This document shows positions 4,028 through 64,000 of a stretch of DNA of 64,000 nt, in pieces; positions within the stretch are counted from its first letter, which is position 1; the number at the start of each line of letters is the position of its first letter. The stretch is from Polyangia bacterium (GTDB lineage Bacteria; Myxococcota_A; Polyangia; Fen-1088): the NCBI GenBank assembly GCA_035549075.1, contig DASZRT010000151.1:26693-90692 (forward strand), given 5' to 3'. A program made the translations under genes and the position numbers. The notes beneath the pieces were generated by a model. The model was not told the origin of the DNA. It saw nothing but the letters and a program-made list of their open reading frames with translations, and did not search any database.

Positions 4028-4103
4028 GGGGCTTTAGCTCAGCTGGGAGAGCGCCTGAATCGCACTCAGGAGGCCGACGGTTCGATCCCGTTAAGCTCCA
4101 CCA
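4028..4103 (+). tRNA. tRNA-Ala (anticodon CGC)
   Basis: Cloverleaf folds: acceptor GGGGCUU/AAGCUCC with a G3:U70 wobble (the Ala identity element), anticodon loop AUCGCAC, T-loop GGUUCGAUCC, encoded CCA end. Confidence 0.85.
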
Positions 4104-7795: not shown

Positions 7796-7836
7796 GCACC
7801 GTTGCGCAAGGTCGCGCGCGCGACCATGTTGGCGAC

Positions 7837-10561: not shown

Positions 10562-10682
10562 GGTGACGGGCGTCATTCCCGCGAAATAGCTCAGAATTCC
10601 TCAGGGCGCCTTCGCTGCATCGGCCAGCGATTCCGTGCCTGGTACGCCAAGGGCCATCGTCTATGTCTCCCGTACGGAGGTG

Positions 10683-12458
10683 ATGATGTCCCGAGGAATC
10701 ACGTCCACCTGCGTCGGTCTTGGCGTCGCCTTGGCCCTCGCTGGGTGCACCGGTACGATAGGCGGCTCGCCCGGCGCGGGTCGGCAGCCCGGCCAGAACG
10801 GCGGCGGTCCCGGCAGCGGCGGCACCGTTGGCTCGACGGGGGCTGGCGGAACGATCGCCGGCGCCGGTGGCACCATCGGGACGGGCTCGGGCGGTGGGGC
10901 CCCGGCGTCGTGCTCGGCGGCCGCGCCCGATCCGGGCGACACGCCCCTCGCGCGCCTCACGCAGGAGCAGTACCTCAACACGCTTCACGACCTCTTCGGC
11001 AACATCAACCTCACCTCGATCTTCCCCACGTCGCAGAGCGCCTCGCAGTTCGGGCTCGCGCAGGCCGACGTCGACGGCTCCGACCTCGACAAGTACCAGC
11101 GCGCCGCCGAGCAAGTGGCCGCCGCCGTCGTCGCCGACAAGAACGCGATGGCCAAGATCGCGCCGTGCACGGCGACCGCGGCCGCCGATCAGCGCACGTG
11201 CGCGAAGACCTTCTTGCAAAACTTCGGCACGAAGATCTACCGCGCGCCCATCGACGCCGCCGACTTCGATCGCCACCTCGCGCTCTACGACGCGGGCTCG
11301 CCCAACGGCGGCTACGCGCACGGCATCGAGCTCATGTTGCGCGGCATGATGCAGGCGCCGCGCTTCCTCTACCGCGTCGAGCTCGGCACGGCCGAGGCCG
11401 TGGGCCCGACCGCCGTGAAGCTCTCGGGCTACGAGCTCGCCTCGCGCCTGTCCTACACGCTGTGGAGCACGGGCCCCGACGACGCGCTCTTCGCGGCGGC
11501 CGCGGGCGGCAAGCTCGCGACGGCGGCCGACGCGCAGGCGCAGCTCACGCGCATGCTGGCCGATCCGCGCGGCGCGACGGCCGTGCGCCACTTCCTCGAG
11601 TCGTGGATCCACCTGCCCGATCTCGACAACGTCGCCAAGGACGGGACGCTCTACCCCGAGTGGAACGACGACGTCCGCGGCGCGATGACGACGCAGGCGC
11701 AGAAGTTCTTCGACGACGTGCTCGCGACCAAGGGCGGCACCGTCGCGTCGCTGCTGACGTCGAAGACGGTGTTCGCCAACGGCAAGCTCGCGCCGATCTA
11801 TTCGGCGCAGGCGACGACCTTCCCGACCGACGGCAGCTTCACGAGCAGCGACAAGACCGACGGCACGGCCTCGGGCCTGCTGACGCTGCCGGCGTTCCTC
11901 GCGACGCAGGCCAAGGCCAGCGAGAGCTCGCCGATCTACCGCGGCAAGTTCGTGCGCGAGCAGCTCTTCTGCCAGGAGCTGCCGTCGCCGCCCGCCAACG
12001 TCCCGCAGGCTCCCATGGTGACCCCGGGCGCGTCGACGCGCGACCGCCTCAAGCAGCACGAGAGCGACATGACCTGCGCCACGTGCCACACCCTCATCGA
12101 TCCCGTGGGCCTCGGCTTCGAGCACTACGACGCCATCGGCCGCTACCGGACCGTTGACGGCGGTAAGCCCGTGGACTCGACCGGCAAGCTCACGGGCACC
12201 GACGTCGACGGCGCGTTCGACGGCGTGAGCCAGCTGGGCACGATGATCGCCGCCAGCGCGCAGGTTCAATCGTGTGTCGCCAAGCAGTGGTTCCGCTACT
12301 CGATGGGCCGTGGCGAGCAGGACGCCGACAGCTGCTCGATCAACGCGCTCACGCAAGCCTTCACGGGCGCGGGCGCCGACCTGCGCACGCTGCCCGCGGC
12401 CATCGTCGCGACGCCCGCGTTCCTCTACCGCCGTCCGCTCGCGCAAGGGAGCAACTGA
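10683..12458 (+). CDS. DUF1592/DUF1588/DUF1585-family lipoprotein (so-called Planctomycete cytochrome-c-like) with a single CxxCH-like motif (CATCH)
   Basis: GGAGG RBS before ATGATG at 10683. Lipobox LALAGC. Gly-rich linker. C-terminal CQELPSPP...MTCATCHTLIDPVGLGFEHYDAIGRYR is characteristic of the DUF1585/DUF1588 region. Confidence 0.85.
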   Translation: MMSRGITSTCVGLGVALALAGCTGTIGGSPGAGRQPGQNGGGPGSGGTVGSTGAGGTIAGAGGTIGTGSGGGAPASCSAAAPDPGDTPLARLTQEQYLNTLHDLFGNINLTSIFPTSQSASQFGLAQADVDGSDLDKYQRAAEQVAAAVVADKNAMAKIAPCTATAAADQRTCAKTFLQNFGTKIYRAPIDAADFDRHLALYDAGSPNGGYAHGIELMLRGMMQAPRFLYRVELGTAEAVGPTAVKLSGYELASRLSYTLWSTGPDDALFAAAAGGKLATAADAQAQLTRMLADPRGATAVRHFLESWIHLPDLDNVAKDGTLYPEWNDDVRGAMTTQAQKFFDDVLATKGGTVASLLTSKTVFANGKLAPIYSAQATTFPTDGSFTSSDKTDGTASGLLTLPAFLATQAKASESSPIYRGKFVREQLFCQELPSPPANVPQAPMVTPGASTRDRLKQHESDMTCATCHTLIDPVGLGFEHYDAIGRYRTVDGGKPVDSTGKLTGTDVDGAFDGVSQLGTMIAASAQVQSCVAKQWFRYSMGRGEQDADSCSINALTQAFTGAGADLRTLPAAIVATPAFLYRRPLAQGSN

Positions 12459-13819
12459 TGAGCGCCACCGACACCCGCACCAAATTTTCGCGCCGTCGTC
12501 TGCTGGGTGGCCTCGGCGGCCTCACCGTGGCGCTGACGGCGCCCATCTGGAAGCCGGCGACGACGTTCGGTGCCGCCGCCAAGCCCGCCAAGCGCTTCAT
12601 CGGCGTGTTCTCGGCGAACGGCACGATCCCGCAGTCGTTCTTCCCCAACACGACGGCGCCCGAGTCGACGCTCGCGCTCGGCCCCGAGTGCCGCATCCTC
12701 GCGCCCATGGCCGCCCACAAGAGCCAGATGCTCGTGCTCAAGGGCGTCGACATGGTGTCGACGATCGGCGCCAACCACCCGGGCGGCCCGCACATGAAGG
12801 GCCCGGGCGCGATGCTCACGGGCGGCACGCTGCTGCCCGGCCCGTTCACGGGCTCCGAAGGCCCAGCTGGCTACGCGAACTGCATGTCGGTCGACCAGCT
12901 CATCGCGACCCGCCTTGGCACGACGACGAAGTTCCCGTCGCTCGAGTTCGGCGTGCGCATCCAGGGCCAAGAGCCGCTGCGCTACATCTCGTACCGCGGC
13001 GCCAGCATGCCCAACACGGCCGTCGACGATCCGTGGCAGCTCTACAGCCGCATGTTCGCCAACGCGGGCATGACCGACGCGCAGCTCGCGCGCACGATGA
13101 CCGAGCGCCAGAGCGTGCTCGACTTCTTGAAGGCCGACCTCACGTCGCTCGAGGCGCGCTTCTCGGCGAGCGATCGCGCGCGCCTCGACGCGCACCTCAC
13201 GGGCATCCGCACGATCGAGCAGCAGATGAAGGCGGGCACGCAAGCGTGCGCGACGCCGACGCTGCCGGCGCGCATCGACCCCGAGGTCATGGAGAACTTC
13301 CCGACCATCGCGAAGATCCAGATGGACCTCATGCTGCTCGCGCTCACGTGCGGCATGACCAACGTCGCGACGTTCATGTTCGCCAACGCCGACAGCTGGC
13401 AGTACTACCCGTGGATCGGCATCAACGAAGAGCACCACACGATGTCGCACGGCGACGACAACGACGCCGCGAACGTCGAGAAGCTCGTGCAGATCAACAT
13501 CTGGCACGCGCAGCAGATCAACTACATGCTCGACGGCCTCGCGGCGCACAACGAGGCGGACGGCAGCACGATGCTCGACAACTCGCTGCTGCTGTGGGGC
13601 AACGAGCTCGGCAAGGGCAACACGCACACCTACAAGGACATCCCCTGGATGCTCGCGGGCGGCGTGGGCGGCTCGATGCGCATGGGCCGCTTCCTCCAGT
13701 ACAACGCCCAGCCCCACAACAACCTGCTCGTCTCCGTCGCCAACGCCTTCGGCCTCAGCGACGTGAAGTCCTTCGGCGACCAGTCCGTCTGCACCGGCGC
13801 CTTGGGCAACCTCACCTGA
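12458..13819 (+). CDS. DUF1552-family protein with a twin-arginine signal (obligate partner of DUF1592)
   Basis: TGATG stop/start overlap with the upstream gene. SRRRLLGGLGGLTVALTA Tat motif; 453 aa. Confidence 0.85.
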   Translation: MSATDTRTKFSRRRLLGGLGGLTVALTAPIWKPATTFGAAAKPAKRFIGVFSANGTIPQSFFPNTTAPESTLALGPECRILAPMAAHKSQMLVLKGVDMVSTIGANHPGGPHMKGPGAMLTGGTLLPGPFTGSEGPAGYANCMSVDQLIATRLGTTTKFPSLEFGVRIQGQEPLRYISYRGASMPNTAVDDPWQLYSRMFANAGMTDAQLARTMTERQSVLDFLKADLTSLEARFSASDRARLDAHLTGIRTIEQQMKAGTQACATPTLPARIDPEVMENFPTIAKIQMDLMLLALTCGMTNVATFMFANADSWQYYPWIGINEEHHTMSHGDDNDAANVEKLVQINIWHAQQINYMLDGLAAHNEADGSTMLDNSLLLWGNELGKGNTHTYKDIPWMLAGGVGGSMRMGRFLQYNAQPHNNLLVSVANAFGLSDVKSFGDQSVCTGALGNLT

Positions 13820-13822
13820 GAC

Positions 13823-14375
13823 CGATCGGGCTCGCTCGCTGCCGCTCGCCTCGCGATGCGGGGCGACACGGGCTCGCTTGCTTCGCAAGCATCGCGGCTC
13901 GTCTCCGGTCGCTGGGCTGGCCGTGTTTGGGGATGCGTCCGCGCTCCGCGGCTCGGGCGGGCCCGACACGGCGCCAGCGGGTGTGAGGACGAAGGGGCCC
14001 TGGAAGCTCCGCGCGGCCGAGTCCCCGAACCCCTCCAGCACTGCACTCGCTACGTTCTGCCGTCGAAGTCAGGCAGGGCTCGCCGATGTTCGAGCCGCGC
14101 GCTCCAATTGTGGCGGTATCGGCCGACCTTCGAAGGCGAGACGTAGAAAGCGCGAGCGGACGGGTTTGGGGATGCGGCTGGGCGGAGCTTCCAGGCCCCT
14201 TCGACCTCACACCCGCTGGCGCCGTGCCGGGCCCGCCCGAGCCGCGGAGCCCAGACGCATCCCCAAACCCGGCCAGCCCAGCGACCGGAGACGAGCCGCG
14301 ATGCTTGCGAAGCAAGCGAGCCCGTGTCGCCCCGCATCGCGAGGCGAGCGGCAGCGAGCGAGCCCGATCGAATTG
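13823..14375. repeat. Large imperfect inverted repeat with arms 13823-14012 and 14183-14375 (about 90% complementary) around a ~170-bp spacer carrying a third partial copy of the TTTGGGGATGCG core; REP/MITE-like or structured-RNA element
   Basis: The reverse complement of 13823-13905 matches 14293-14375 almost exactly (terminal CGATCGGGCTCGCTCGC). Mirror-image ORFs on both strands translate to near-identical peptides (MLRKHRGSSPVAGLA...). An internal GCTTGCttcGCAAGC hairpin is present. Confidence 0.75.
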
Positions 14376-14415
14376 TGATTGACGGCGACCTGGGCCAGAG
14401 GCACCATGTCAAAAG

Positions 14416-15084
14416 ATGAATCGCCGTTCAGAATCTGAAATCGCGAAGGCAAATCTTCGCGAGCGCATTCGGGAGACGACCGTCCAGGCGATTCTCGACG
14501 CGGCCGAAGAGGTGTTTGCCGACGCGGGCCTTCACGCGGCGCACATGGGTGAGATCGCCGCCAAGGCCGGCACGTCGGTCGGCACGCTCTACAACCACTT
14601 CGAGGACCGCGAGGCGCTGCTGGCGGCGCTCATGGAGGCGCGCCACGCCGAGCTGGTCGCGCGCATCGACGCCGCGCTCGTCGAGAACGCCGGCCGCCCG
14701 CTGCGCGACCGGCTGCGCGGGATTCTGGGCGCGTTCTTCGCCCACTGCGAGGCGCACCGAAAGTTCGTGCTCATCGTCCTGCAGCGCGAGGTGGGGCGCT
14801 ACCACCAGACCTACCCGCAGGCGTGGGCGAAGAAGACGGACGCCATGCGCGACATCCACGCGCGCCTCGGCGACGAGATGAAGACCGGCGTCGCCGAGGG
14901 CTCGCTGCGCCCCGAGGCGCTCGACCTCGCGCCCACGTTCTTCCTGGGCATGATGCGCGCGCTCATCATCCGCGACGTCGTGCTCGAGCCGGGCGCCGAC
15001 GCGGCCGCCGACGTCGATCGCCTCATGGACATGTTCTTTCACGGCGTCGGCCCGCACGGCGCGCACCGGGAGGCGGCGGCGTGA
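14416..15084 (+). CDS. TetR/AcrR-family transcriptional regulator
   Basis: N-terminal HTH (ILDAAEEVFADAGLHAAHMGEIAAKAGTSVGTLYNHF); 222 aa. Confidence 0.9.
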   Translation: MNRRSESEIAKANLRERIRETTVQAILDAAEEVFADAGLHAAHMGEIAAKAGTSVGTLYNHFEDREALLAALMEARHAELVARIDAALVENAGRPLRDRLRGILGAFFAHCEAHRKFVLIVLQREVGRYHQTYPQAWAKKTDAMRDIHARLGDEMKTGVAEGSLRPEALDLAPTFFLGMMRALIIRDVVLEPGADAAADVDRLMDMFFHGVGPHGAHREAAA

Positions 15085-28662: not shown

Positions 28663-29631
28663 ATGTCGCGGGCGAGCCGCACCGGTTGGAGCCGACGCGA
28701 GGCCGTGACGGCGCTCGCAGGCGCGGGCGTCGCCGTCGGTTGCGACAAGCTGTGGCACGCGCCGACGAAATCGCTCGCGGCGGCTTCGCGCGAGCGCGAG
28801 GTCGTCAACGTCGTCGACGCGCAGCCGACGATCGAGGGCGCGGGCGTTCACCTGCGGCGCTCGCTCGGGTCGCGCGCGCTGCCGCTGCTCGATCCCTTCC
28901 TCATGCTCGACGAGTTCCACTCGGATCGTCCCGAGGACTACCTGCCCGGCTTCCCGAGCCACCCGCACCGCGGCTTCGAGACGGTGACGTACATGCTCGA
29001 GGGCGCCGTCGAGCACCGCGACAGCCTCGGCAACCACGGCCACCTGGGCCCGGGTTGCGCGCAGTGGATGACCGCCGGCCACGGCATCATCCACTCGGAG
29101 ATGCCGGTCGAAGAGCGCACGAGCCCGCGCATGTGGGGCTTCCAGCTGTGGGTCAACCTGCCGGCGGCGAAGAAGCTGATCGCGCCGCGCTATCAGGATC
29201 TGCCGCCCGCGCGCATCCCCGAGGTCGACGTCGACGACGGCCGCATCCGGCTCGTCGCGGGAACCATCGGCGGCGCGGTTGGGCCCGTCAGCGGCATCGT
29301 CACGGCGCCGCAGATGTTCGAGGTGAAGCTCGGGCGGCGCGGCTCCGTGCGCCACGACGTGCCCACGTCGCACAACGCGTTCGTCTACGTCTTCGACGGC
29401 GAGGCGCAGCTGGGACCGGCGCGCACGAAGGTCGGCGCGGGCCAGCTCGCCGTGCTCGGCCCGGGCGAGCGCCTCGTCGCGCGCGCCGAGACGTCGGCGC
29501 GTTTGCTCTCGTTCGCGGGCGCGCCCATCGGCGAGCCCGTCGCGCGCTACGGTCCGTTCGTCATGAACACCGAGGACGAGCTGCGCCAGGCCGTCGACGA
29601 CTACCGCTCGGGCCGCCTGACCTTGCTCTGA
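28663..29631 (+). CDS. Pirin-family bicupin (quercetinase-like) with a Tat-type signal
   Basis: SRREAVTALAGAGVAVGC Tat/lipobox-like leader. Pirin metal-ligand motif HPHRGFETVTYMLEG...H. Confidence 0.85.
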   Translation: MSRASRTGWSRREAVTALAGAGVAVGCDKLWHAPTKSLAAASREREVVNVVDAQPTIEGAGVHLRRSLGSRALPLLDPFLMLDEFHSDRPEDYLPGFPSHPHRGFETVTYMLEGAVEHRDSLGNHGHLGPGCAQWMTAGHGIIHSEMPVEERTSPRMWGFQLWVNLPAAKKLIAPRYQDLPPARIPEVDVDDGRIRLVAGTIGGAVGPVSGIVTAPQMFEVKLGRRGSVRHDVPTSHNAFVYVFDGEAQLGPARTKVGAGQLAVLGPGERLVARAETSARLLSFAGAPIGEPVARYGPFVMNTEDELRQAVDDYRSGRLTLL

Positions 29632-29649
29632 TCGCGCGCGCGATCAGAG
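29626..29649. promoter_or_regulatory. Perfect 24-bp palindrome CTCTGATCGCGCG|CGCGATCAGAG overlapping the pirin stop codon; terminator or EBP/operator site
   Basis: Exactly self-complementary 24-mer, 77 nt upstream of the sigma-54 activator gene. Confidence 0.4.
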
Positions 29650-29725
29650 CAAGGGTCCGTCGCCCATCCGCGGGAGAGTCCGTCGTCCGTTGCCGCGTAC
29701 GCCCGCGATCGACTAACGTCGATGC

Positions 29726-34906: not shown

Positions 34907-35977
34907 CTACTTCCTGAGCTGGAAGTGATCGGCGTAGACGACGCCGTGCCACTCGGCCGCGCCCGTGCCCGACATCGTGAGGCGGAAGCCCATCGACGTG
35001 ATGTTCGTGAGGTCGCCCGTGTTGAAGGCCGACTCGATGGGGAAGGGACGGAACTCGAGCCATTTGCCGACGGTGATCGGCTTGGTCTGGCTGGCGTTGG
35101 CGAGCAGCAGGCCCTTGTCCTTCGAGACGAGCTCCATCTGCGCCGTCACCACCGCGCCCGCGGGCAGCGCCGGGCCGTCGAGGTAGAGCCAGCCGAGGCT
35201 CGCGCGTCCGACGGCGTTGGTGATGGGCAGGCCCGTGCCCGTCGCCGGGAAGGCGAACTGCGCCTCGCCGCGCATCCCGGCGTCGCTGCCGGGCACGAAG
35301 TCGACGCCCACGGTGAGGTTCGCCTTGTAGCAGTACGGGTGGCACATCTGGACGGCATATCCGGAGAACGCCGTGCCGTAGTTCGTAATCGTCACGGGCG
35401 TCGTCGACGGGTCGTAGCCGGGCGTGAGCTTCTTGACGTTCGTGGCGTAGTTCGACGCGTCGTAGTTGGCGGCGACGTCGAAGTCGATGCCCTGATCTTG
35501 AACGTCGCACTCGCTGAAGTTCGTGTTGATGCGGTTGACGGCGCCCGCGACGTCGTTGGAGATGCACGCGGGCGGCTTGCCCGCGCCGATCGAGCCACCG
35601 CCGCCCGTCGAGCCACCCGTTGCGGTCGTGCCGCCGGCGCCGCCCGTCGCCGTCGAGCCACCGCCGCCCGTCGAGCCACCCGTCGCGGTCGTGCCGCCTG
35701 TGCCGCCGGTCGCGGGCGTGCCACCGGTCCCGCCCGTCGCCGATGAGCCACCGGTGCCGGTCGTACCGCCCGTCGCGGGCGAGCCGCCATCGCCACCGTT
35801 GCTCGAAGGCGGTGGGTTGCCCGTCGAGCCACCCGTGTCGCTCGTGCCGGCAGTGCCTCCGCTGCCTGTGCTGCCGCCCGTCGCGCCGTGGCGCGGCGGC
35901 TCGGAGCTGGTGCACGCACCGATGGCGATGGCCGCGCACGCGGTGAAGACGAACGAACGAGTCTGGGGGCGCGTCAT
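34907..35977 (-). CDS. Lipoprotein with a Gly/Thr/Ser linker and an unassigned ~230-aa Cys-containing C-terminal domain (paralog A)
   Basis: ATG 35977 with an AGGAGAG RBS. Lipobox AIAIGAC. The C-terminal domain is shared with the next gene (ITNYGTAFSGY..CHPYCYKANLTVGVD..EWHGVVYADHFQLR). Confidence 0.8.
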   Translation of the reverse strand: MTRPQTRSFVFTACAAIAIGACTSSEPPRHGATGGSTGSGGTAGTSDTGGSTGNPPPSSNGGDGGSPATGGTTGTGGSSATGGTGGTPATGGTGGTTATGGSTGGGGSTATGGAGGTTATGGSTGGGGSIGAGKPPACISNDVAGAVNRINTNFSECDVQDQGIDFDVAANYDASNYATNVKKLTPGYDPSTTPVTITNYGTAFSGYAVQMCHPYCYKANLTVGVDFVPGSDAGMRGEAQFAFPATGTGLPITNAVGRASLGWLYLDGPALPAGAVVTAQMELVSKDKGLLLANASQTKPITVGKWLEFRPFPIESAFNTGDLTNITSMGFRLTMSGTGAAEWHGVVYADHFQLRK

Positions 35978-35988
35978 CGAAAGCTCTC

Positions 35989-37029
35989 CTAGAGACCGAA
36001 GGGGTATTGGCCGGACGGGTCCTTCATCGCAGCGCCCGTGCGCATCTGCAAGTGATCGAGGTAGACGACGCCGTGCCACTCCATGCCCTTCGGCAGGTTG
36101 GCGGGCGCCGTGATGCGGAAGCCGAGGCCCGTGACGTTCATCGGCACCGTCGGGAACGTCGTCGCATTGATGCCGAAGTACTTGAACTCAGCGTGCTGGT
36201 AGTCGAGCCAGTTCGCGTAGCCGATCGGCTGCGCCTTGCCGGCGACGATGATGCCCGTCGGCGTCTCGATCACCATCTGCGCCGAGATCGTGAACGGCGG
36301 CTTCGTCGGCCCGTCGAGCTGGATCCACGCGAGCGAGTCGCGTCCCACGGCCGTGGGGATCGGCAGGCCGTTGCCCGTCGTCGGGAAGCGCACGATGACC
36401 TCGCCCTGCAGCGCCTTTGCGTCGCCGCCGCCGACGATGTCGACGCCGATCGTGAGCTCTTTGCTGAAGCAGTATGGGCTGCAGTCGTTGATCTCGTAGT
36501 ACCCGAGCGCCGTGCCGTAGTCGGTGATGCGGATCGAGCCCACCGGCTGCGGGTACGAGTACCTGTCCTCGAAGTCGAGGCTCTGCAGCAGGAAGTCGCA
36601 CTCGTTCGTCGGCTTCTGCGAGGGGATCGGCGACGGCTTCTTCACGAGGCACGTCGGCGTGGTGCGGCCGCCGGCGTCGGGCGGAAGCACGAACTCGCCG
36701 TCGGTCGTCGCGCCCGCGTCGGTGTTCGTCGAGCCGCCGCCGCCCGTCGAGCCGCCCGCGCCCGTCGAGCCGCCGCTACCCGTCGAGCCGCCGGTCGAGG
36801 TCGAACCGCCCGTGCCCGTCGAGCCGCTGTTGCCGCCCGTCGACGTCGTGCCGCCCGTGCCCGAATCACCGCCCGTCGACGTCGTGCCGCCCGTGCCCGC
36901 GCCCGTCGTCCCGCCCGTCGCCGATGATCCACCGTTGCCACCCGAGCCACCGCGCGGCGGCTCCGAGCTCGTGCAAGCAACGGCCGCGAGGACGCAAACG
37001 ACCACCAAGCGAACGCCGGACAAACGCAT
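35989..37029 (-). CDS. Lipoprotein with a Gly/Thr/Ser linker and the same unassigned C-terminal domain (paralog B)
   Basis: ATG 37029 with a GAGGAG RBS. Lipobox LAAVAC. ITDYGTALGYY..CSPYCFSKELTIGVD..EWHGVVYLDHLQMR aligns with paralog A. Confidence 0.8.
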   Translation of the reverse strand: MRLSGVRLVVVCVLAAVACTSSEPPRGGSGGNGGSSATGGTTGAGTGGTTSTGGDSGTGGTTSTGGNSGSTGTGGSTSTGGSTGSGGSTGAGGSTGGGGSTNTDAGATTDGEFVLPPDAGGRTTPTCLVKKPSPIPSQKPTNECDFLLQSLDFEDRYSYPQPVGSIRITDYGTALGYYEINDCSPYCFSKELTIGVDIVGGGDAKALQGEVIVRFPTTGNGLPIPTAVGRDSLAWIQLDGPTKPPFTISAQMVIETPTGIIVAGKAQPIGYANWLDYQHAEFKYFGINATTFPTVPMNVTGLGFRITAPANLPKGMEWHGVVYLDHLQMRTGAAMKDPSGQYPFGL

Positions 37030-40380: not shown

Positions 40381-41870
40381 TGCGGCAGGCGCAGCGCGAG
40401 CATGGCGTCGATCGTCGATTGAGGGACTTGCGACGGCAGGCCCGGCAACAGCGTCGCGATGGAGGCCGGCACGGCGTCCGGGTGAACGAGCGCGAGCTGC
40501 ACGGTGCGCGAGGCGACGTCGTACAGCGCGATGAAGTAGCGGTACCCCGTCGCGGGGCGGCGGAACGCCGCGCCCACGCTCGTCTTGTTGACGACGGCGC
40601 CGGCGGCGGCTTCGGTGTTGCCCGTCTTCTTGTTGACGAGGTCGACGGACGCCGGCAGCGCCGAGACGTCGCACTTCGTGCCGCACGGGCCCTCGCCCAC
40701 GTAGCCACCGTAGCCGAAGAAGTTGGTGCTGATGATGTCGAGGTTCTTCGAGGTGTTCTTGTCGTTGACGACCTCGAAGGCGTTCAGCTGGCCGCAGCCG
40801 TCCCCCGAGTAGTTGGCGGTCGCCGGAGGCACCGGCGGGTACGAGTAACACTGGCACGAGTTGTAGAGGCCTTGGCGCACGAGCTCACCGTGGCTGATGC
40901 CGATCCAAGGCGCGTCGTACCAGCCGTCGGTCGCGTCGTTCTTGCAGTTCTGCGCGTTCGTGATCGCGCCCGATCCGTAGTGCGGCATGGTCGCGAGGAT
41001 GATGAACATCTTCGAGCCCGACCAGCCGTAGTCCTTGCTCTTGCCGGCGCCCGGCGCGGGGCAATACGGATCGCTGCCCGGGCCACAGGGGAACGCCATC
41101 CCCGACGAGACGTCGACGAAGCAGTCGTTGCCGACGACGCCCGTGAGACCGGTCGTGCCAGGCGTCATCGGCCCGCCCGAGAACGTCATGTTCGTCGCGG
41201 CCGTCGGGCTGCGCGCGTCCCACGACGACGCCAGCTTCCATGTGCCCGTGAGGCCCGAGACCGGCTGGTAGACGGCGAACTGCTTGACCAGCATCGGGCC
41301 GCGCAACGACACGGCGAGCTCTTCGTCCCAGGGCGTGAGCTGCGTACCGGTGATGACCTTGTTCGTGAGGCAGCACGTGACGTTGCCCTTGGAGTCGGTG
41401 GTCTTCTGCACGTCGCACGGGCCGACGGCGGGATCGCGTCGCGTCGGGTACATACCGGCGGCGCCGATCATGGGGAAGGTGATCGTAGCGCCGTCGGAGA
41501 CGGGCCCCGCGGCGAGGCCGGGATACGGACCGAGGCCGCCGCCCGCGCCAGGCGCGCCGCCGCTCCCCGTCGCGCCGCCCGAAGCCGTCGTGCCGCCGCT
41601 GCCCGGCGTGCCTCCGCTGCCGGTTGTACCGCCCGGCGCCGTCGTGCCGCCGCCGCCGGTCATGCCCCCGCCGCTCGACGTCGTGCCGCCGCGGCCCGGC
41701 GAGCCGCCGGTGCCACCGCTCGCGTGGCCGCCCGCGCCGCCCGTCGTTCCGCCGCCGCCGGACGATCCGCTGGTGCCGCCGCTGGCGCCCGTCGTGCCGC
41801 CACCGCCGCCGCACGCCGCGAGGCTCAACACGGCTCCCAAGACCATCGCGAGCGTCGTTTGACTTTTCAT
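40377..41870 (-). CDS. Secreted Cys/Gly/Tyr-rich lipoprotein, hypothetical (497 aa)
   Basis: An internal ATG gives MKSQTTLAMVLGAVLSLAAC. About 110 aa of GG(T/S) linker, then a Cys-rich globular domain. Convergent with the previous gene; their stops share CTAG. Confidence 0.7.
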   Translation of the reverse strand: MKSQTTLAMVLGAVLSLAACGGGGGTTGASGGTSGSSGGGGTTGGAGGHASGGTGGSPGRGGTTSSGGGMTGGGGTTAPGGTTGSGGTPGSGGTTASGGATGSGGAPGAGGGLGPYPGLAAGPVSDGATITFPMIGAAGMYPTRRDPAVGPCDVQKTTDSKGNVTCCLTNKVITGTQLTPWDEELAVSLRGPMLVKQFAVYQPVSGLTGTWKLASSWDARSPTAATNMTFSGGPMTPGTTGLTGVVGNDCFVDVSSGMAFPCGPGSDPYCPAPGAGKSKDYGWSGSKMFIILATMPHYGSGAITNAQNCKNDATDGWYDAPWIGISHGELVRQGLYNSCQCYSYPPVPPATANYSGDGCGQLNAFEVVNDKNTSKNLDIISTNFFGYGGYVGEGPCGTKCDVSALPASVDLVNKKTGNTEAAAGAVVNKTSVGAAFRRPATGYRYFIALYDVASRTVQLALVHPDAVPASIATLLPGLPSQVPQSTIDAMLALRLPH

Positions 41871-53965: not shown

Positions 53966-55260
53966 AGACCCTTCTCAAGACGACCGCTCTGGGTGTTTTT
54001 CTGGTGACCGCGCCGGCGTTGGCTCAGACCGCGCCGAGCGACGGATCTGAGCTCTCGTTCGATCAAGCCCTGGCGCTCGCGCGCAAGAACAACCGCGCCG
54101 TCAAGGTCGATCGCGCGCAGCTCACCGCGGCGCAGACGGCGACAGAGACGGCATGGTCGTCGCTGCTGCCGACGATCGCGGCGCAGGGAAAGTACACGCG
54201 CAACTACAAGCAGGTGGAGTTCCCGGCGGGCACGTTCGGGCCGAAGGGGCTGCTCCTCCAGCCGACCAACCAGTTGGACGGAACGATCAGCGCGACGCTG
54301 CCGTTGATCGCGCCCGCGGCCTGGGCCGCGCTCAAGTCGGTGCAGGCCAACGTCGACTCGGCCGAGGCGAACTTCGCGGCGCAAGAGGCCGATCTGCTCG
54401 TCCAGGTGGCGCAGACGTACCTCGCCGCCGCGGGTACCGACGAGCTCGTCACGGCGCGCCAGTCGAGCCTGAGCGTCGCGCGCGCGACGCTCAAGGACGC
54501 GGAGGTGCGGCTGGCCGCGGGCTCGGTCACGAAGGTCGACGTCGACCGCGCCGAGGTCGCCGTCGTCCGCGCCGAGCAGGCGGAGCGCGAGGCGCTCACC
54601 GCGCGCGAGCGAACCTACCGCGGGCTCGGGACGCTCCTCCAGTCCAACGTCCAGAAGGTCAGCACGACTTTCCCGACGGCGCCCGCGCCGGACGCCAACG
54701 ACGTCCAGACCGCGCTGCACCTCCGCCCCGAGTTCCGCGCGCTCGAGATGACGGCGCGCTCGGCCGATCAGGAAGCCAATGCGCGCGCTTGGCTCTGGGC
54801 GCCGAGCATCTCGGCCTTCGGCAACGCGCGCAAGTTCAACTACGACAACTTCGCGCTGGATCGCTACTCGTGGGCAGCCGGTGCTCAACTCGACTGGCTG
54901 CTGTTCGACGGCGGCTCGCGCGACGCGGCCCGACACCAGGCCAACGCGCGCGCCGCGGCGGCGCGCGAGCAGGCCTCCCTCTTCGGCGACACCGTGCGCG
55001 ACGATCTCGCCAACACGTCGGCTGACCTGCGCACGAAACGCGAGGCCGTCAACGCCGCGCAGAAGTCGGCGGCGCTGTCGCAAGAGTCGCTCGACCTCAT
55101 TCGCACGCAGTACACGGCGGGCACGGCGACGCAGCTCGACCTGCTGCAGGCGCAGGACGCCCTCGTGAGCGCGAACATCGCGCTCGTCCAGGCGCACTTC
55201 GACGTCGCGGCCGCGGACCTCGCGTTTCGCCACGCCGCGGGCACGTTCCCGCCTAAGTAG
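53962..55260 (+). CDS. Outer-membrane efflux protein (TolC/OprM-like OMF)
   Basis: GTGA overlap with the RND stop. Signal peptide LVTAPALAQ. Duplicated alpha-helical/beta-barrel repeats; 432 aa. Confidence 0.9.
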   Translation: MKTLLKTTALGVFLVTAPALAQTAPSDGSELSFDQALALARKNNRAVKVDRAQLTAAQTATETAWSSLLPTIAAQGKYTRNYKQVEFPAGTFGPKGLLLQPTNQLDGTISATLPLIAPAAWAALKSVQANVDSAEANFAAQEADLLVQVAQTYLAAAGTDELVTARQSSLSVARATLKDAEVRLAAGSVTKVDVDRAEVAVVRAEQAEREALTARERTYRGLGTLLQSNVQKVSTTFPTAPAPDANDVQTALHLRPEFRALEMTARSADQEANARAWLWAPSISAFGNARKFNYDNFALDRYSWAAGAQLDWLLFDGGSRDAARHQANARAAAAREQASLFGDTVRDDLANTSADLRTKREAVNAAQKSAALSQESLDLIRTQYTAGTATQLDLLQAQDALVSANIALVQAHFDVAAADLAFRHAAGTFPPK

Positions 55261-56129: not shown

Positions 56130-56143
56130 CCACCTCTCATCAT

Positions 56144-56666
56144 CCGTCACCTCTCGCCGGAGGATCCTCCTTTTGTCGGGCGGCGGGCGCTCGCGGGAAC
56201 GGGTCCTGCCGCTGCGGGGTCCTCCCCGCTGAGTCTTTTTCCCTCGTTCACCGTCGTGGTTCTGATGCTCTGATCAACCGGCAGCTGATCCCCATGGACT
56301 GCCTCGGGAAAAAGCCTCATCGGGGTCCCCCCCCTTCGCGTCACCCGTTCCCGCTCGCTTCCCGCCGCCGGCACGACGAACCCGATCCCGCCAAACTGGA
56401 TGCGGCCATGACGGACCTAAATCGGGACGATCGGGTCGTGTTGTCGGCGGGGTGTAGCCCGTGGAACGGGTGGCAGTGAGGGAAGGGGCCCGCTGAAGCT
56501 TTTTTTCGCGAGTCCATGGGGATCCGTCCGCTCGCAGCGACGAGCACGAGTCCCTCGAGGCCCGAAAAAAAGTTCAGTGGGAAGGGATCGCCGAGCTGAC
56601 AGGACCCGTTCCGCGGGATGCACCCCGCCCTCACCCGGAGAACCGTCCGCAGGCGAGAGGTGACGG
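56144..56666. repeat. ~520-bp noncoding element: two diverged head-to-head inverted copies (~250 bp each) of a unit, bounded by perfect 15-bp terminal inverted repeats (CCGTCACCTCTCGCC / GGCGAGAGGTGACGG). Multiple internal hairpins; lower GC with A/T runs. MITE-like or structured-RNA candidate.
   Basis: Shared ordered blocks in both arms: GGAACGGGTCCTG, GATCCCCATGGACT, GAAAAA(A)AGCnTCAnCGGG, CACCCGTTCC. The 12-bp palindrome GGAGGATCCTCC is present. There are four copies of GGAACGGGT, in both orientations. The ORFs in this interval lack coding periodicity. Confidence 0.65.
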
Positions 56667-56681
56667 AAGACGAGAGCCTAG

Positions 56682-62307: not shown

Positions 62308-63147
62308 CTACTTGGTCACCTTCGTCGCCAGCGTCGTCGTCGCGAGGTTGTTCGCGGTCTTGTCGAGCGCCGTCTTGATGTCGCCCGCGAACTGCGCCGT
62401 CGTGACGCCTGGGAGCGGGCGCGCCTTCTGCGCGTAGAGCGTGAAGACGTAGTCGTGCGTTCCGCTCGGCGGGCACGGGCGGATGTAGCCCATCGACTCG
62501 TTGTTGCCGCCGACCTGCATCGCGCCCGACGGATCGGGCGGCGTGTGCGAGGCCTGCGAGACGTCCTCGGGCAGCGCGAACGTGTCGGGCTTGATGTCCC
62601 AGATCGCCCAGTGCGTGAAGCCGTTGGTGTTGTCCTTGAGGACGATCGCGTAGCCGGCCGTGCCCTCGGGGCCCTTGCCCCACATGAGCGGCGGCGACGG
62701 CTTCGAGCCGTTGCCGCTGATGCAGGTGTACTTCATCGGGATCGTGCCGCCCGCCTCGACGACGGTGCTCGTGAGGGCGAAGCCGCCCGCGCCGGCGGAG
62801 GCGTCGGGCGTCGTGCCGCCGTCGCTGCCTCCGGAGGCCGCCGTGCCGCCGGTTCCCGTCGTACCACCGCTCGCCGTCGTGCCCCCGGTGCCCGTCGCGC
62901 CGCCCGTCGCCGTCGTGCCACCCGTGCCCGTGGTTCCACCCGTCGCGCTCGAACCGCCGGTGCCCGTGGTCCCGCCGCTCGCCGTCGTGCCGCCCGTGCC
63001 TCCACTCGCCGTCGTGCCACCCGTCCCCGTCGTGCCACCCGTGCCCCCGGGCGTCGAGCCGCCCGACGAGCAGCCGTAAACAACGAAGGCGCCCGCGAGC
63101 GCCACCACCATCCCGAACGTTTCGGCTTTGTGTCGCAACGTCGTCAT
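62308..63147 (-). CDS. YbhB/YbcL (PEBP/RKIP)-family lipoprotein with a Gly/Thr linker
   Basis: ATG 63147 with a GAGGAG RBS. Lipobox VVYGCSSGG. PEBP core (GYAIVLKDNTNGFTHWAIWDIKPD...YVFTLYAQ). Confidence 0.8.
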   Translation of the reverse strand: MTTLRHKAETFGMVVALAGAFVVYGCSSGGSTPGGTGGTTGTGGTTASGGTGGTTASGGTTGTGGSSATGGTTGTGGTTATGGATGTGGTTASGGTTGTGGTAASGGSDGGTTPDASAGAGGFALTSTVVEAGGTIPMKYTCISGNGSKPSPPLMWGKGPEGTAGYAIVLKDNTNGFTHWAIWDIKPDTFALPEDVSQASHTPPDPSGAMQVGGNNESMGYIRPCPPSGTHDYVFTLYAQKARPLPGVTTAQFAGDIKTALDKTANNLATTTLATKVTK

Positions 63148-63379: not shown

Positions 63380-64000
63380 TCAAAGGCCCGCTAATGTCCC
63401 GTCGGCGTCGCCGACCTTCACGTTCACGCCCATCGTCGCGATGACGCTCGTGAGCAGGTTCGAGACCTTCGTGTGCGTCGCCGTCGGGAAGAGCAGGTGC
63501 TTGCCGGGCGTGAACATGCCGCCGCCGTGGCCCGCGAGAATCACGGGCATGTCGTCATGGTTGTGGCGATCTCCGTCGGAGATCTCGCTCGAGAAGAAGA
63601 TCGTCGAGTTGTAGAGCATGTCGTTCGCGCCCTCGGGCACGGCCTTCAGCTTGGTCAAGAAGTAGGCGAACAGCTGGATCTCGTAGGTGCCGATCTGCTG
63701 CAGCATCATGAGGTTCGCCGGCATCATCCCGTGGTGCGAGATGTCGTGGTGGCCGCGCGAGATGCCGAGGTTGTTGTAGGTGCGGTTGCTGCCGGCGTTG
63801 CCGAGCATGAACGAGATGATGCGCGTCGAATCGCACTGCATGGCGAGCACCATGAGGTCGCTCATGGCCTTGACCTGCGTCTCGAAGTCCGTCGACGAGG
63901 CGGTCTTCGTCGTCGGCATCGTGCACATCGCCGTGGGCGTCGCGACGGCCGCCTGACGCTCGAGCTCGCGCACACCCGTGAGGAATTGATCGAGCTTCTC
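63380..64000 (-). CDS. Second DUF1552-family protein, C-terminal part (5' end beyond the window)
   Basis: HDDMPVILAGHGGGMFTPGKHLLF...SNLLTSVIATMGVNVKVGDADGTLAGL parallels the C-terminus of the 12458..13819 protein. The stop is at 63380. Confidence 0.75.
   Translation of the reverse strand, partial: EKLDQFLTGVRELERQAAVATPTAMCTMPTTKTASSTDFETQVKAMSDLMVLAMQCDSTRIISFMLGNAGSNRTYNNLGISRGHHDISHHGMMPANLMMLQQIGTYEIQLFAYFLTKLKAVPEGANDMLYNSTIFFSSEISDGDRHNHDDMPVILAGHGGGMFTPGKHLLFPTATHTKVSNLLTSVIATMGVNVKVGDADGTLAGL

Follow-up and report, generated by a model that had tools for sequence, protein, structure and literature searches.

Organization of a long quasi-palindrome between the DUF1552 and TetR genes

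The stretch of DNA analyzed here, 64,000 nt in length and called the window below, comes from a metagenome-assembled genome of a soil bacterium of the class Polyangia, a myxobacterial group (assembly GCA_035549075.1, contig DASZRT010000151.1). Between the last gene of a PSD-DUF1552 pair and the first gene of a TetR-MFS-HlyD efflux operon, the window contains a quasi-palindrome of 548 bp (13823-14370), denoted element 1, with the ends CGATCGGG...CCCGATCG and the symmetry center at 14096/14097. Element 1 is real and non-coding, and among the possible explanations of its origin we tentatively prefer the insertion of a foldback element similar to a transposable element of the miniature inverted-repeat kind (MITE). 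The layout of the locus is as follows:

12455-13819, plus strand: DUF1552/HXXSHH gene, the last of the PSD-DUF1552 pair, with the TGA stop codon at 13817-13819
13823-14036: left arm of element 1, about 214 nt, delimited by a repeat search and a map of mismatches
14037-14157: central spacer of element 1, 121 nt
14158-14370: right arm of element 1, about 213 nt, ending 8 nt before the -35 box of the TetR gene
14379-14407, plus strand: putative TetR promoter, with the -35 box TTGACG (14379-14384), a 17-nt gap and the -10-like sequence CACCAT (14402-14407)
14416-15084, plus strand: TetR/AcrR regulator, the first gene of the TetR-MFS-HlyD efflux operon

The repeat search resolves the arms into two pairs, an outer one (13823-13999 and 14194-14370) of 177 nt with 97% complementarity and an inner one (13995-14036 and 14158-14199) of 42 nt that is 83% complementary and shifted by one base. 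Complementarity thus climbs outward, from none in the spacer, through the 42 nt of the inner pair and the next 76 nt, which contain all five mismatches of the 177-nt arms (13924, 13940, 13942, 13966, and 13989), to the outer 101 nt that, up to their inward limit at 13923, are 100% complementary to 14270-14370. When compared with its own reverse complement, element 1 matches at 87-88% over all 548 bp (E ~1e-179). As a single strand, it is predicted to adopt one long hairpin, with an RNA folding energy of -554.5 kcal/mol vs -285.9 +/- 7.8 kcal/mol for shuffled sequences (z = -34.7). The spacer has no significant self-complementarity (score 10 vs 8.3 +/- 1.8, a value equaled by 68 of 300 shuffles) and no similarity to the arms or flanks, an AATTGTG match between the spacer and the right flank being due to chance. 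The GC content of element 1 is 72%, vs 70% for the whole window, and Tandem Repeats Finder detects no tandem repeats in it.

The palindrome is far beyond chance expectation and lies where an earlier note on this DNA had placed it. That note, compiled from the sequence without database searches, had described arms of 190 bp with about 90% complementarity around a spacer of about 170 bp, starting 4 nt after the DUF1552 stop codon and ending about 40 nt before the TetR start. The repeat search, the self-alignment and the predicted fold confirm the inverted repeat, its high complementarity and its near-abutment on both genes; the arms are longer and the spacer is shorter than stated, the uniform figure gives way to the gradient described above, and the measured distances are 3 nt to the stop codon and 45 nt to the TetR ATG (14416).

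The same organism is represented by a second assembly, GCA_964589105.1, in which the contig CAZPSI010000050.1 carries the identical 548 bp in the same orientation. Over 20.7 kb, this contig differs from the window at two positions, both outside element 1.

Internal motifs and compensatory changes

Element 1 contains four copies, in alternating orientation, of a 15-nt core motif, denoted M, that is found nowhere else in the window. These copies and the other internal repeats are:

13923-13937, plus strand: M copy 1, GTGTTTGGGGATGCG, left outer arm
14018-14032, minus strand: M copy 2, degenerate, GGGTTCGGGGACTCG, left inner arm
14162-14176, plus strand: M copy 3, GGGTTTGGGGATGCG, right inner arm
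14256-14270, minus strand: M copy 4, GGGTTTGGGGATGCG, right outer arm
14158-14274: local hairpin of the right arm, in which 14158-14183 pairs with 14249-14274 at 24 of 26 positions around a 65-nt loop
13827-13882, plus strand: two direct 14-mers CGGGCTCGCT(C/T)GCT, 42 nt apart, mirrored at 14311-14366

The copy at 14162-14176 had been noticed before and assigned to the spacer; it lies in the inner right arm, and the degenerate copy at 14018-14032 is a fourth one. Each arm, then, holds an inverted repeat of its own (M/M'). The right arm folded alone is more stable than expected (z = -5.0); the left-arm counterpart of its hairpin (13919-13944 and 14011-14036) is paired at 19 of 26 positions, and the left arm alone shows no significant fold (z = +0.9). 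At two sites, bases pair within each arm and are mismatched across the arms: the pairs are 13940C:14015G and 14179T:14253A at the first site, and 13942C:14013G and 14181G:14251C at the second one. The chance of such two-site covariation is 0.01-0.02 by a rough estimate that does not come from simulation. Clustered, multi-base compensatory changes have been attributed to template switching (PMC8794818), and the pattern seen here suggests that copying within the element operates in element 1. The mismatches between the arms show no strand-consistent G-U bias, so that selection acting on an RNA stem is not indicated. All four matches to the 14-mer in the window fall inside element 1, compared with 0.46 expected; these paired 14-mers may be comparable to the binding sites for transposase that recur in long terminal inverted repeats.

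Coding and RNA potential

Two long, mirror-image open reading frames (ORFs) run through element 1, and both are spurious:

13878-14378, plus strand: mirror ORF, 166 amino acids
13812-14315, minus strand: its twin, 167 amino acids

The GC content of these ORFs stays at 0.71-0.78 at all three codon positions, whereas third-position GC reaches 0.91-0.97 in the genes on either side. Pfam yields no match to them, a search of 5.8 billion predicted proteins returned neither a homolog nor the ORFs themselves, and no gene is called at this position in the annotation of GCA_964589105.1. The previous warning that the mirror ORFs are an annotation trap is supported by these results.

Neither is there any indication of a known structured RNA. 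Comparison of element 1 with the Rfam 15 covariance models yields no match even at E <= 1, and ARAGORN detects no tRNA or tmRNA in it. No promoter-like or terminator-like consensus sites are predicted in 13600-14600, and no run of T follows either arm, so that element 1 lacks the U-tract of an intrinsic terminator, although it might act as a hairpin terminator of the U-less kind. Across the entire window, Rfam matches a single feature, a tRNA gene at 4028-4100.

Genomic context of element 1

The arrangement TTGAC(C/G), 17 nt, CAC(C/A)(A/G)T, 8 nt, ATG upstream of the TetR gene is common to the loci L015, L016, and L017 of related bacteria, with the matching positions at 14379-14416 in the window, ~1384-1421 in L015 and ~5963-6000 in L017; in a BLAST comparison, the homology with L017 begins at window position 14398. 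Given this shared geometry, 14379-14407 is putatively assigned as the TetR promoter, and the TetR mRNA is probably leaderless. Because element 1 is lodged between a stop codon and this conserved promoter geometry, the original spacer would have been about 48 nt long (3 + 45), and the element is extra DNA.

In the relatives that possess the same TetR-MFS-HlyD operon, TetR is 66-75% identical to the one in the window. All five of them have a small pair of lipoprotein genes divergent from the TetR gene, and this pair is missing throughout the window; the regions upstream of TetR in these relatives are different, short and devoid of a palindrome. No orthologous DUF1552-TetR junction was found among these relatives, in which TetR identity does not exceed 75% and intergenic DNA is not alignable at that distance. 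The DUF1552 genes located near TetR in some relatives are, judging by their 31% identity, paralogs and are not to be read as synteny; for this reason, the notion that the palindrome replaced four genes of the relatives, derived from L016 and one further locus, was rejected. Another DUF1552 (HXXSHH) gene is cut off by the right end of the window (63380-64000), the first PSD/DUF1552 pair being located at 10635-13819; hence, such gene pairs are multicopy in this genome.

A second palindrome and other repeats in the window

The window contains another large palindrome, denoted element 2:

56134-56676: element 2 (the "56144 element"), 543 bp, four alternating units of about 135 nt

Element 2 is 77% self-complementary right to the center and has a fold z-score of -11.6; it is more degenerate than element 1 and is the older palindrome of the two. 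Its outer quarters are most similar to each other and so are the inner ones, with weaker similarity across the two pairs, and its core motif is present in four alternating copies. No homology between elements 1 and 2 was detected by BLAST, with nhmmer profiles or by global alignment compared with shuffled sequences. Both parts of the original description, namely that the two sequences are unrelated and that their architectures are alike, therefore hold, element 2 being a 543-bp palindrome with a comparable layout.

The Sir2 and F420-oxidoreductase genes are convergent, and element 2 takes up the interval between them, beginning 4 nt after one stop codon and ending 5 nt before the other. In the locus L030 of a related genome (GCA_038325725.1), both flanks are syntenic, with 77-86% nucleotide identity, the element is absent and the two genes share an overlap of 8 nt. 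This empty site with overlapping genes indicates that element 2 is a lineage-specific gain of about 550 nt. The element has no resemblance to either flank; a possible 5-nt duplication (CCTAA/CCTAG) is offset by 4 nt on one side. In the JGI metagenome 3300056388 (locus mfLVXPnc, Sir2 80% identical), 852 bp separate the Sir2 and F420-oxidoreductase genes and include a 229-amino-acid ORF without a Pfam match; this gap may be another insertion at the same site.

Assemblies often break at repeated or heterogeneous DNA. GCA_964589105.1 breaks inside element 2, where two contigs overlap by 301 bp with six mismatches, and Logan contigs likewise end inside it. Over the ~41 kb in which the window can be compared with GCA_964589105.1 (loci L031 and L034), there are nine differences, six of which fall in 56402-56546, in the center and right part of element 2, and none in element 1. 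This cluster could reflect strain heterogeneity, a mutation hotspot at the palindrome center, reads from other copies or a contig-end error. The explanation of these central variants as templated or flipped alleles was considered and rejected: at each of the five alignable positions, the base in the window is complementary to its partner and that of the variant is not, a result that is not significant.

Shorter repeats are scattered over the window. A perfect 34-bp GC-rich palindrome, CTTGCTCTGATCGCGCGCGCGATCAGAGCAAG (29621-29654), overlaps the stop codon of the Pirin gene, is not followed by a T-run and possibly represents the native, U-less terminator style of this genome. A perfect 24-bp palindrome (54470-54493) is located inside an outer-membrane efflux (OEP) gene, and a perfect 16-bp one, GGTCGCGCGCGCGACC (7810-7825), contains one of the two single-nucleotide differences between the assemblies (7811). 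Direct repeats with an 18-nt period (GCC CGT CGN GCC ACC-like) at 35579-35900, 36694-36940, 41499-41810, and 62790-63075 are unrelated to the palindromes and appear to encode Gly/Thr/Ser/Ala-rich, low-complexity linkers of secreted proteins or lipoproteins on the minus strand.

Comparison with known classes of palindromic elements

The Correia elements (NEMIS) of Neisseria and the ERIC elements of enterobacteria resemble element 1 in that they are non-coding, intergenic, bounded by inverted repeats and often located near gene ends and promoters. These elements are 100-160 bp long, with terminal repeats of ~25 bp and a target duplication (TA for Correia), and are present in tens to hundreds of copies per genome; when co-transcribed, Correia/ERIC-type inverted repeats form hairpins that are RNase III substrates and alter mRNA stability or read-through. 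By contrast, element 1 has 548 bp, 214-nt arms, no evident duplication and no second copy found. A search of the literature on long palindromic repeats in myxobacteria returned nothing specific.

We know of no established bacterial counterpart of the foldback transposon families. The eukaryotic ones (Drosophila FB and Tetris; PMC4079207) share with element 1 very long arms that bear sub-repeats, a short non-palindromic middle part and the non-coding nature; they differ in being eukaryotic and multicopy, with arms made of tandem sub-repeats and with target duplications. Element 1 further resembles MITEs in its small size, its lack of coding sequence and the presence of terminal inverted repeats at its very ends, which are, however, far longer than usual.

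The alternation of a short motif in an intergenic mosaic is reminiscent of repetitive extragenic palindromic (REP) sequences, bacterial interspersed mosaic elements (BIMEs) and REPINs (PMC3733652), and M...65 nt...M' resembles a REPIN doublet. REP units are stem-loops of 20-40 nt whose head is GTAG or CGTC, and they are found in numerous copies together with a REP-associated tyrosine (Y1) transposase (RAYT), whereas M forms no stem-loop and is not self-complementary, has neither head, is present in four copies and is not accompanied by a RAYT gene in the window; nor do M and the 14-mer, both confined to element 1, behave as dispersed, imperfectly palindromic units of 20-40 nt. The suggestion of the earlier note that the two palindromes represent a family of REP/MITE-like elements is not borne out, since no second copy of element 1 or of its motifs was found in the sequences searched and the features of REP and BIME are lacking. 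Unlike an inverton, element 1 has no promoter-like site in the spacer and the same single orientation in both assemblies, and no recombinase gene is present in the window. Element 1 is without the tested defining features of REP/BIME, canonical terminators, invertons, Rfam families, and genes.

Template-switch quasipalindromes (PMC8794818, PMC13100816, PMC8604942, PMC7202029) similarly have arms perfected or lengthened by copying and clustered compensatory changes; their arms are ~7-30 nt long, compared with ~214 nt in element 1, which has no detectable local source. The unstable palindromes of Escherichia coli, yeast and human, such as SbcCD substrates and palindromic AT-rich repeats (PATRRs; PMC7999016, PMC4787754), likewise have arms of hundreds of base pairs, near-perfect identity and the potential to form hairpins or cruciforms, with an instability that is expected to fall with the length of the spacer and with changes in the center. 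These, however, are constructs or AT-rich human sites, whereas element 1 is GC-rich, natural, bacterial and identical in two assemblies. Instability is to be expected in bacteria for inverted repeats with arms of more than 200 nt and 97-100% identity (PMC7999016). Element 1 is most suitably classified as a long intergenic element of foldback or quasipalindromic type. A natural inverted repeat of 214 nt with 97-100% identity is mildly surprising in a bacterial chromosome, the more so given the presence of element 2, of like size and layout but unrelated sequence.

Origin and possible effect of element 1

The interpretation that we tentatively favor, with a confidence that falls somewhat short of even, is that element 1 arose by insertion of MITE-like foldback DNA and, in a passive way, forms a hairpin barrier separating the two genes. 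Under this scenario, foldback DNA would have inserted, in this Polyangia lineage, into the ~48-nt gap between the DUF1552 stop codon and the promoter of the TetR-MFS-HlyD operon. The closest likeness would be a non-autonomous, MITE-like transposon, intact or in remnant form, whose terminal inverted repeats are unusually long. Such an element would have arrived as ready-made foreign DNA via transposition, and subsequent copying within it, by template switching or gene conversion, would keep the arms alike while the center decays.

This interpretation is favored because element 2 is a clean gain at a site without spare DNA, because neither element has a local source and both are found in tiny former spacers, because a length of less than 600 bp, the lack of coding sequence and the terminal inverted repeats fit the MITE or foldback class, because element 2 breaks short-read assemblies, as repeated or heterogeneous DNA often does, and because the direct 14-mers of element 1 may be likened to transposase-binding sites. 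With regard to a local source, no similarity was found between element 1 and its flanks or the rest of the window; hence, it was not copied from adjacent sequence. The derivation of an arm from a flanking gene, or of the spacer from a flank or an arm, was likewise rejected for want of significant similarity.

Several observations speak against an insertion. No second copy of element 1 is present elsewhere in the window or in 41 kb of the relatives' loci. Searches for the 19-nt M core in 185,579 GTDB representative genomes and for the terminal 20-mer in JGI metagenomes yielded, respectively, 13 single matches and 11 matches, all attributable to chance; BLAST of both elements against plasmids and phages gave no match, and three scans of viral contigs found nothing that could be extended. 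As far as the source genome is concerned, the copy searches covered it only within the window. There are no transposase, integrase, recombinase, or RAYT genes in the window. The flanks, GAC before the CGATCG of the left end and AAT after the CGATCG of the right end, contain no direct repeat, so that a target-site duplication is possible only if the terminal palindromic CG or CGATCG is the duplication itself. In addition, arms of 214 nt and four alternating motifs are atypical of described bacterial MITEs, and the lack of shared sequence between elements 1 and 2 gives no indication of a single transposase recognizing common ends. Finally, the compensatory changes and the outward gradient of identity would be explained no less well by local copying from a template.

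Whatever its origin, the hairpin barrier is likely the only effect of element 1, and a passive one, to judge from the analogy with known inverted repeats. By analogy with Correia/ERIC-type elements, RNA transcribed beyond the end of the DUF1552 gene would fold into a ~214-bp stem, at which the RNA polymerase should stop or stall and which RNase III should cut; the TetR promoter would thereby be shielded from transcription arriving from upstream. At the DNA level, element 1 is a potential hairpin or cruciform site and a potential hazard for replication and recombination that would be moderated by the 121-nt spacer (PMC7999016).

The strongest alternative, which we consider only somewhat less probable than an insertion, is that element 1 originated at its present site as an inverted duplication, through template switching or fold-back priming, and has never been mobile. 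A pre-existing imperfect inverted repeat, the inner 42-nt pair around the 121-nt spacer, would have been extended by an inverted copy of ~177 nt; later templated copying would keep the arms alike, and the nesting of four motifs would reflect successive inverted duplications. The uniqueness of element 1 in everything searched is compatible with this scenario, as is the outward rise in identity, which would result from an old short repeat seeding a younger outer duplication, and the compensatory changes match the template-switch signature (PMC8794818). Template switching is known to homogenize and expand the arms of inverted repeats (PMC13100816, PMC8604942), and in fold-back priming, large palindromes are seeded by short inverted repeats (PMC7999016). 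The palindrome-of-palindromes structure of element 2 would similarly be the outcome of two rounds of inverted duplication. However, element 2 had no local seed, given that L030 has no intergenic DNA at this site and the flanks show no resemblance to the element. The coincidence of the ends of element 1 with functional boundaries, which is natural for an insertion in a 48-nt spacer, would otherwise be fortuitous. The documented template-switch expansions span tens of bases rather than ~200 (PMC13100816), a ten-fold gap in scale, whereas the described fold-back priming yields whole-chromosome palindromes that are not obviously viable in a circular chromosome.

Another explanation, which we regard as improbable, is that element 1 is a selected unit, either a structured RNA or U-less terminator-insulator, or regulatory DNA for the TetR efflux operon, in which case the M motifs would be protein-binding sites or the 121-nt segment would be invertible by RecA. 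The placement right behind a stop codon and right in front of a promoter, the extreme stability of the stem, the native U-less 34-bp hairpin at the end of another gene (29621-29654), and the regular alternation of the four 15-nt motifs confined to element 1, along with the compensatory changes in the local hairpins, are all in line with selection. The hairpin-RNA, terminator or insulator role proposed in the earlier note is plausible in view of the location and stability of element 1. Against it stands the lack of conservation, with short, palindrome-free upstream regions in the relatives that have the same operon, as well as the lack of an Rfam match and of a strand-consistent G-U preference in the arm mismatches. 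Furthermore, neither a promoter-like or terminator-like site nor a recombinase gene in the window has been found, and a stem of 214 bp far exceeds the needs of any terminator.

Comparably doubtful is the possibility that elements 1 and 2 result from a lineage-specific process that generates, at the ends of genes, nested palindromes of a fixed length, or belong to a mobile class defined by structure. The two elements are indeed alike in length (548 and 543 bp), in having four alternating core copies, in starting 3-4 nt after a stop codon and in filling the gap between the genes. One candidate process would be iterated doubling, primed by hairpins or mediated by template switching, during break repair. 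If this were the case, the palindrome center would be a mutation hotspot, in line with the six of the nine inter-assembly differences that fall in the center of element 2.

Palindromic joins are a familiar artifact of assemblers and of amplification, and both assemblies are metagenome-derived and may come from the same reads; yet, a chimeric hairpin join or a mis-traversed inverted repeat in the assembly graph is a very unlikely source of element 1, which is internal, with unremarkable unique sequence on either side in the window (13.8 kb and 49.6 kb), has imperfect arms (five mismatches and inner parts that have diverged) and a 121-nt spacer of unique sequence, features that a graph error would not make, and is the same, base for base, in two assemblies with differing contig structure. 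A genuine gene, suggested by the long open frames on both strands through element 1, can be dismissed with near certainty because long ORFs are expected by chance in DNA with 72% GC and in view of the flat codon-position composition, the lack of Pfam matches and homologs, and the absence of a gene call in the second assembly.

Implications for myxobacterial genomes

For practical purposes, mirror ORFs such as those in element 1 trap annotators, and palindromes of this kind can break short-read assemblies of this lineage, as is the case with element 2. More generally, element 1, located beside the promoter of a drug-efflux regulator, is a natural test case for how GC-rich bacteria tolerate, create and trim palindromes, and for whether hairpins insulate neighboring transcription units. 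If it is truly single-copy, element 1 would be an unusually large candidate product of palindrome formation by template switching; if more copies or similar elements are present in the full genome, it would represent a new foldback-type class of repeats in myxobacteria.

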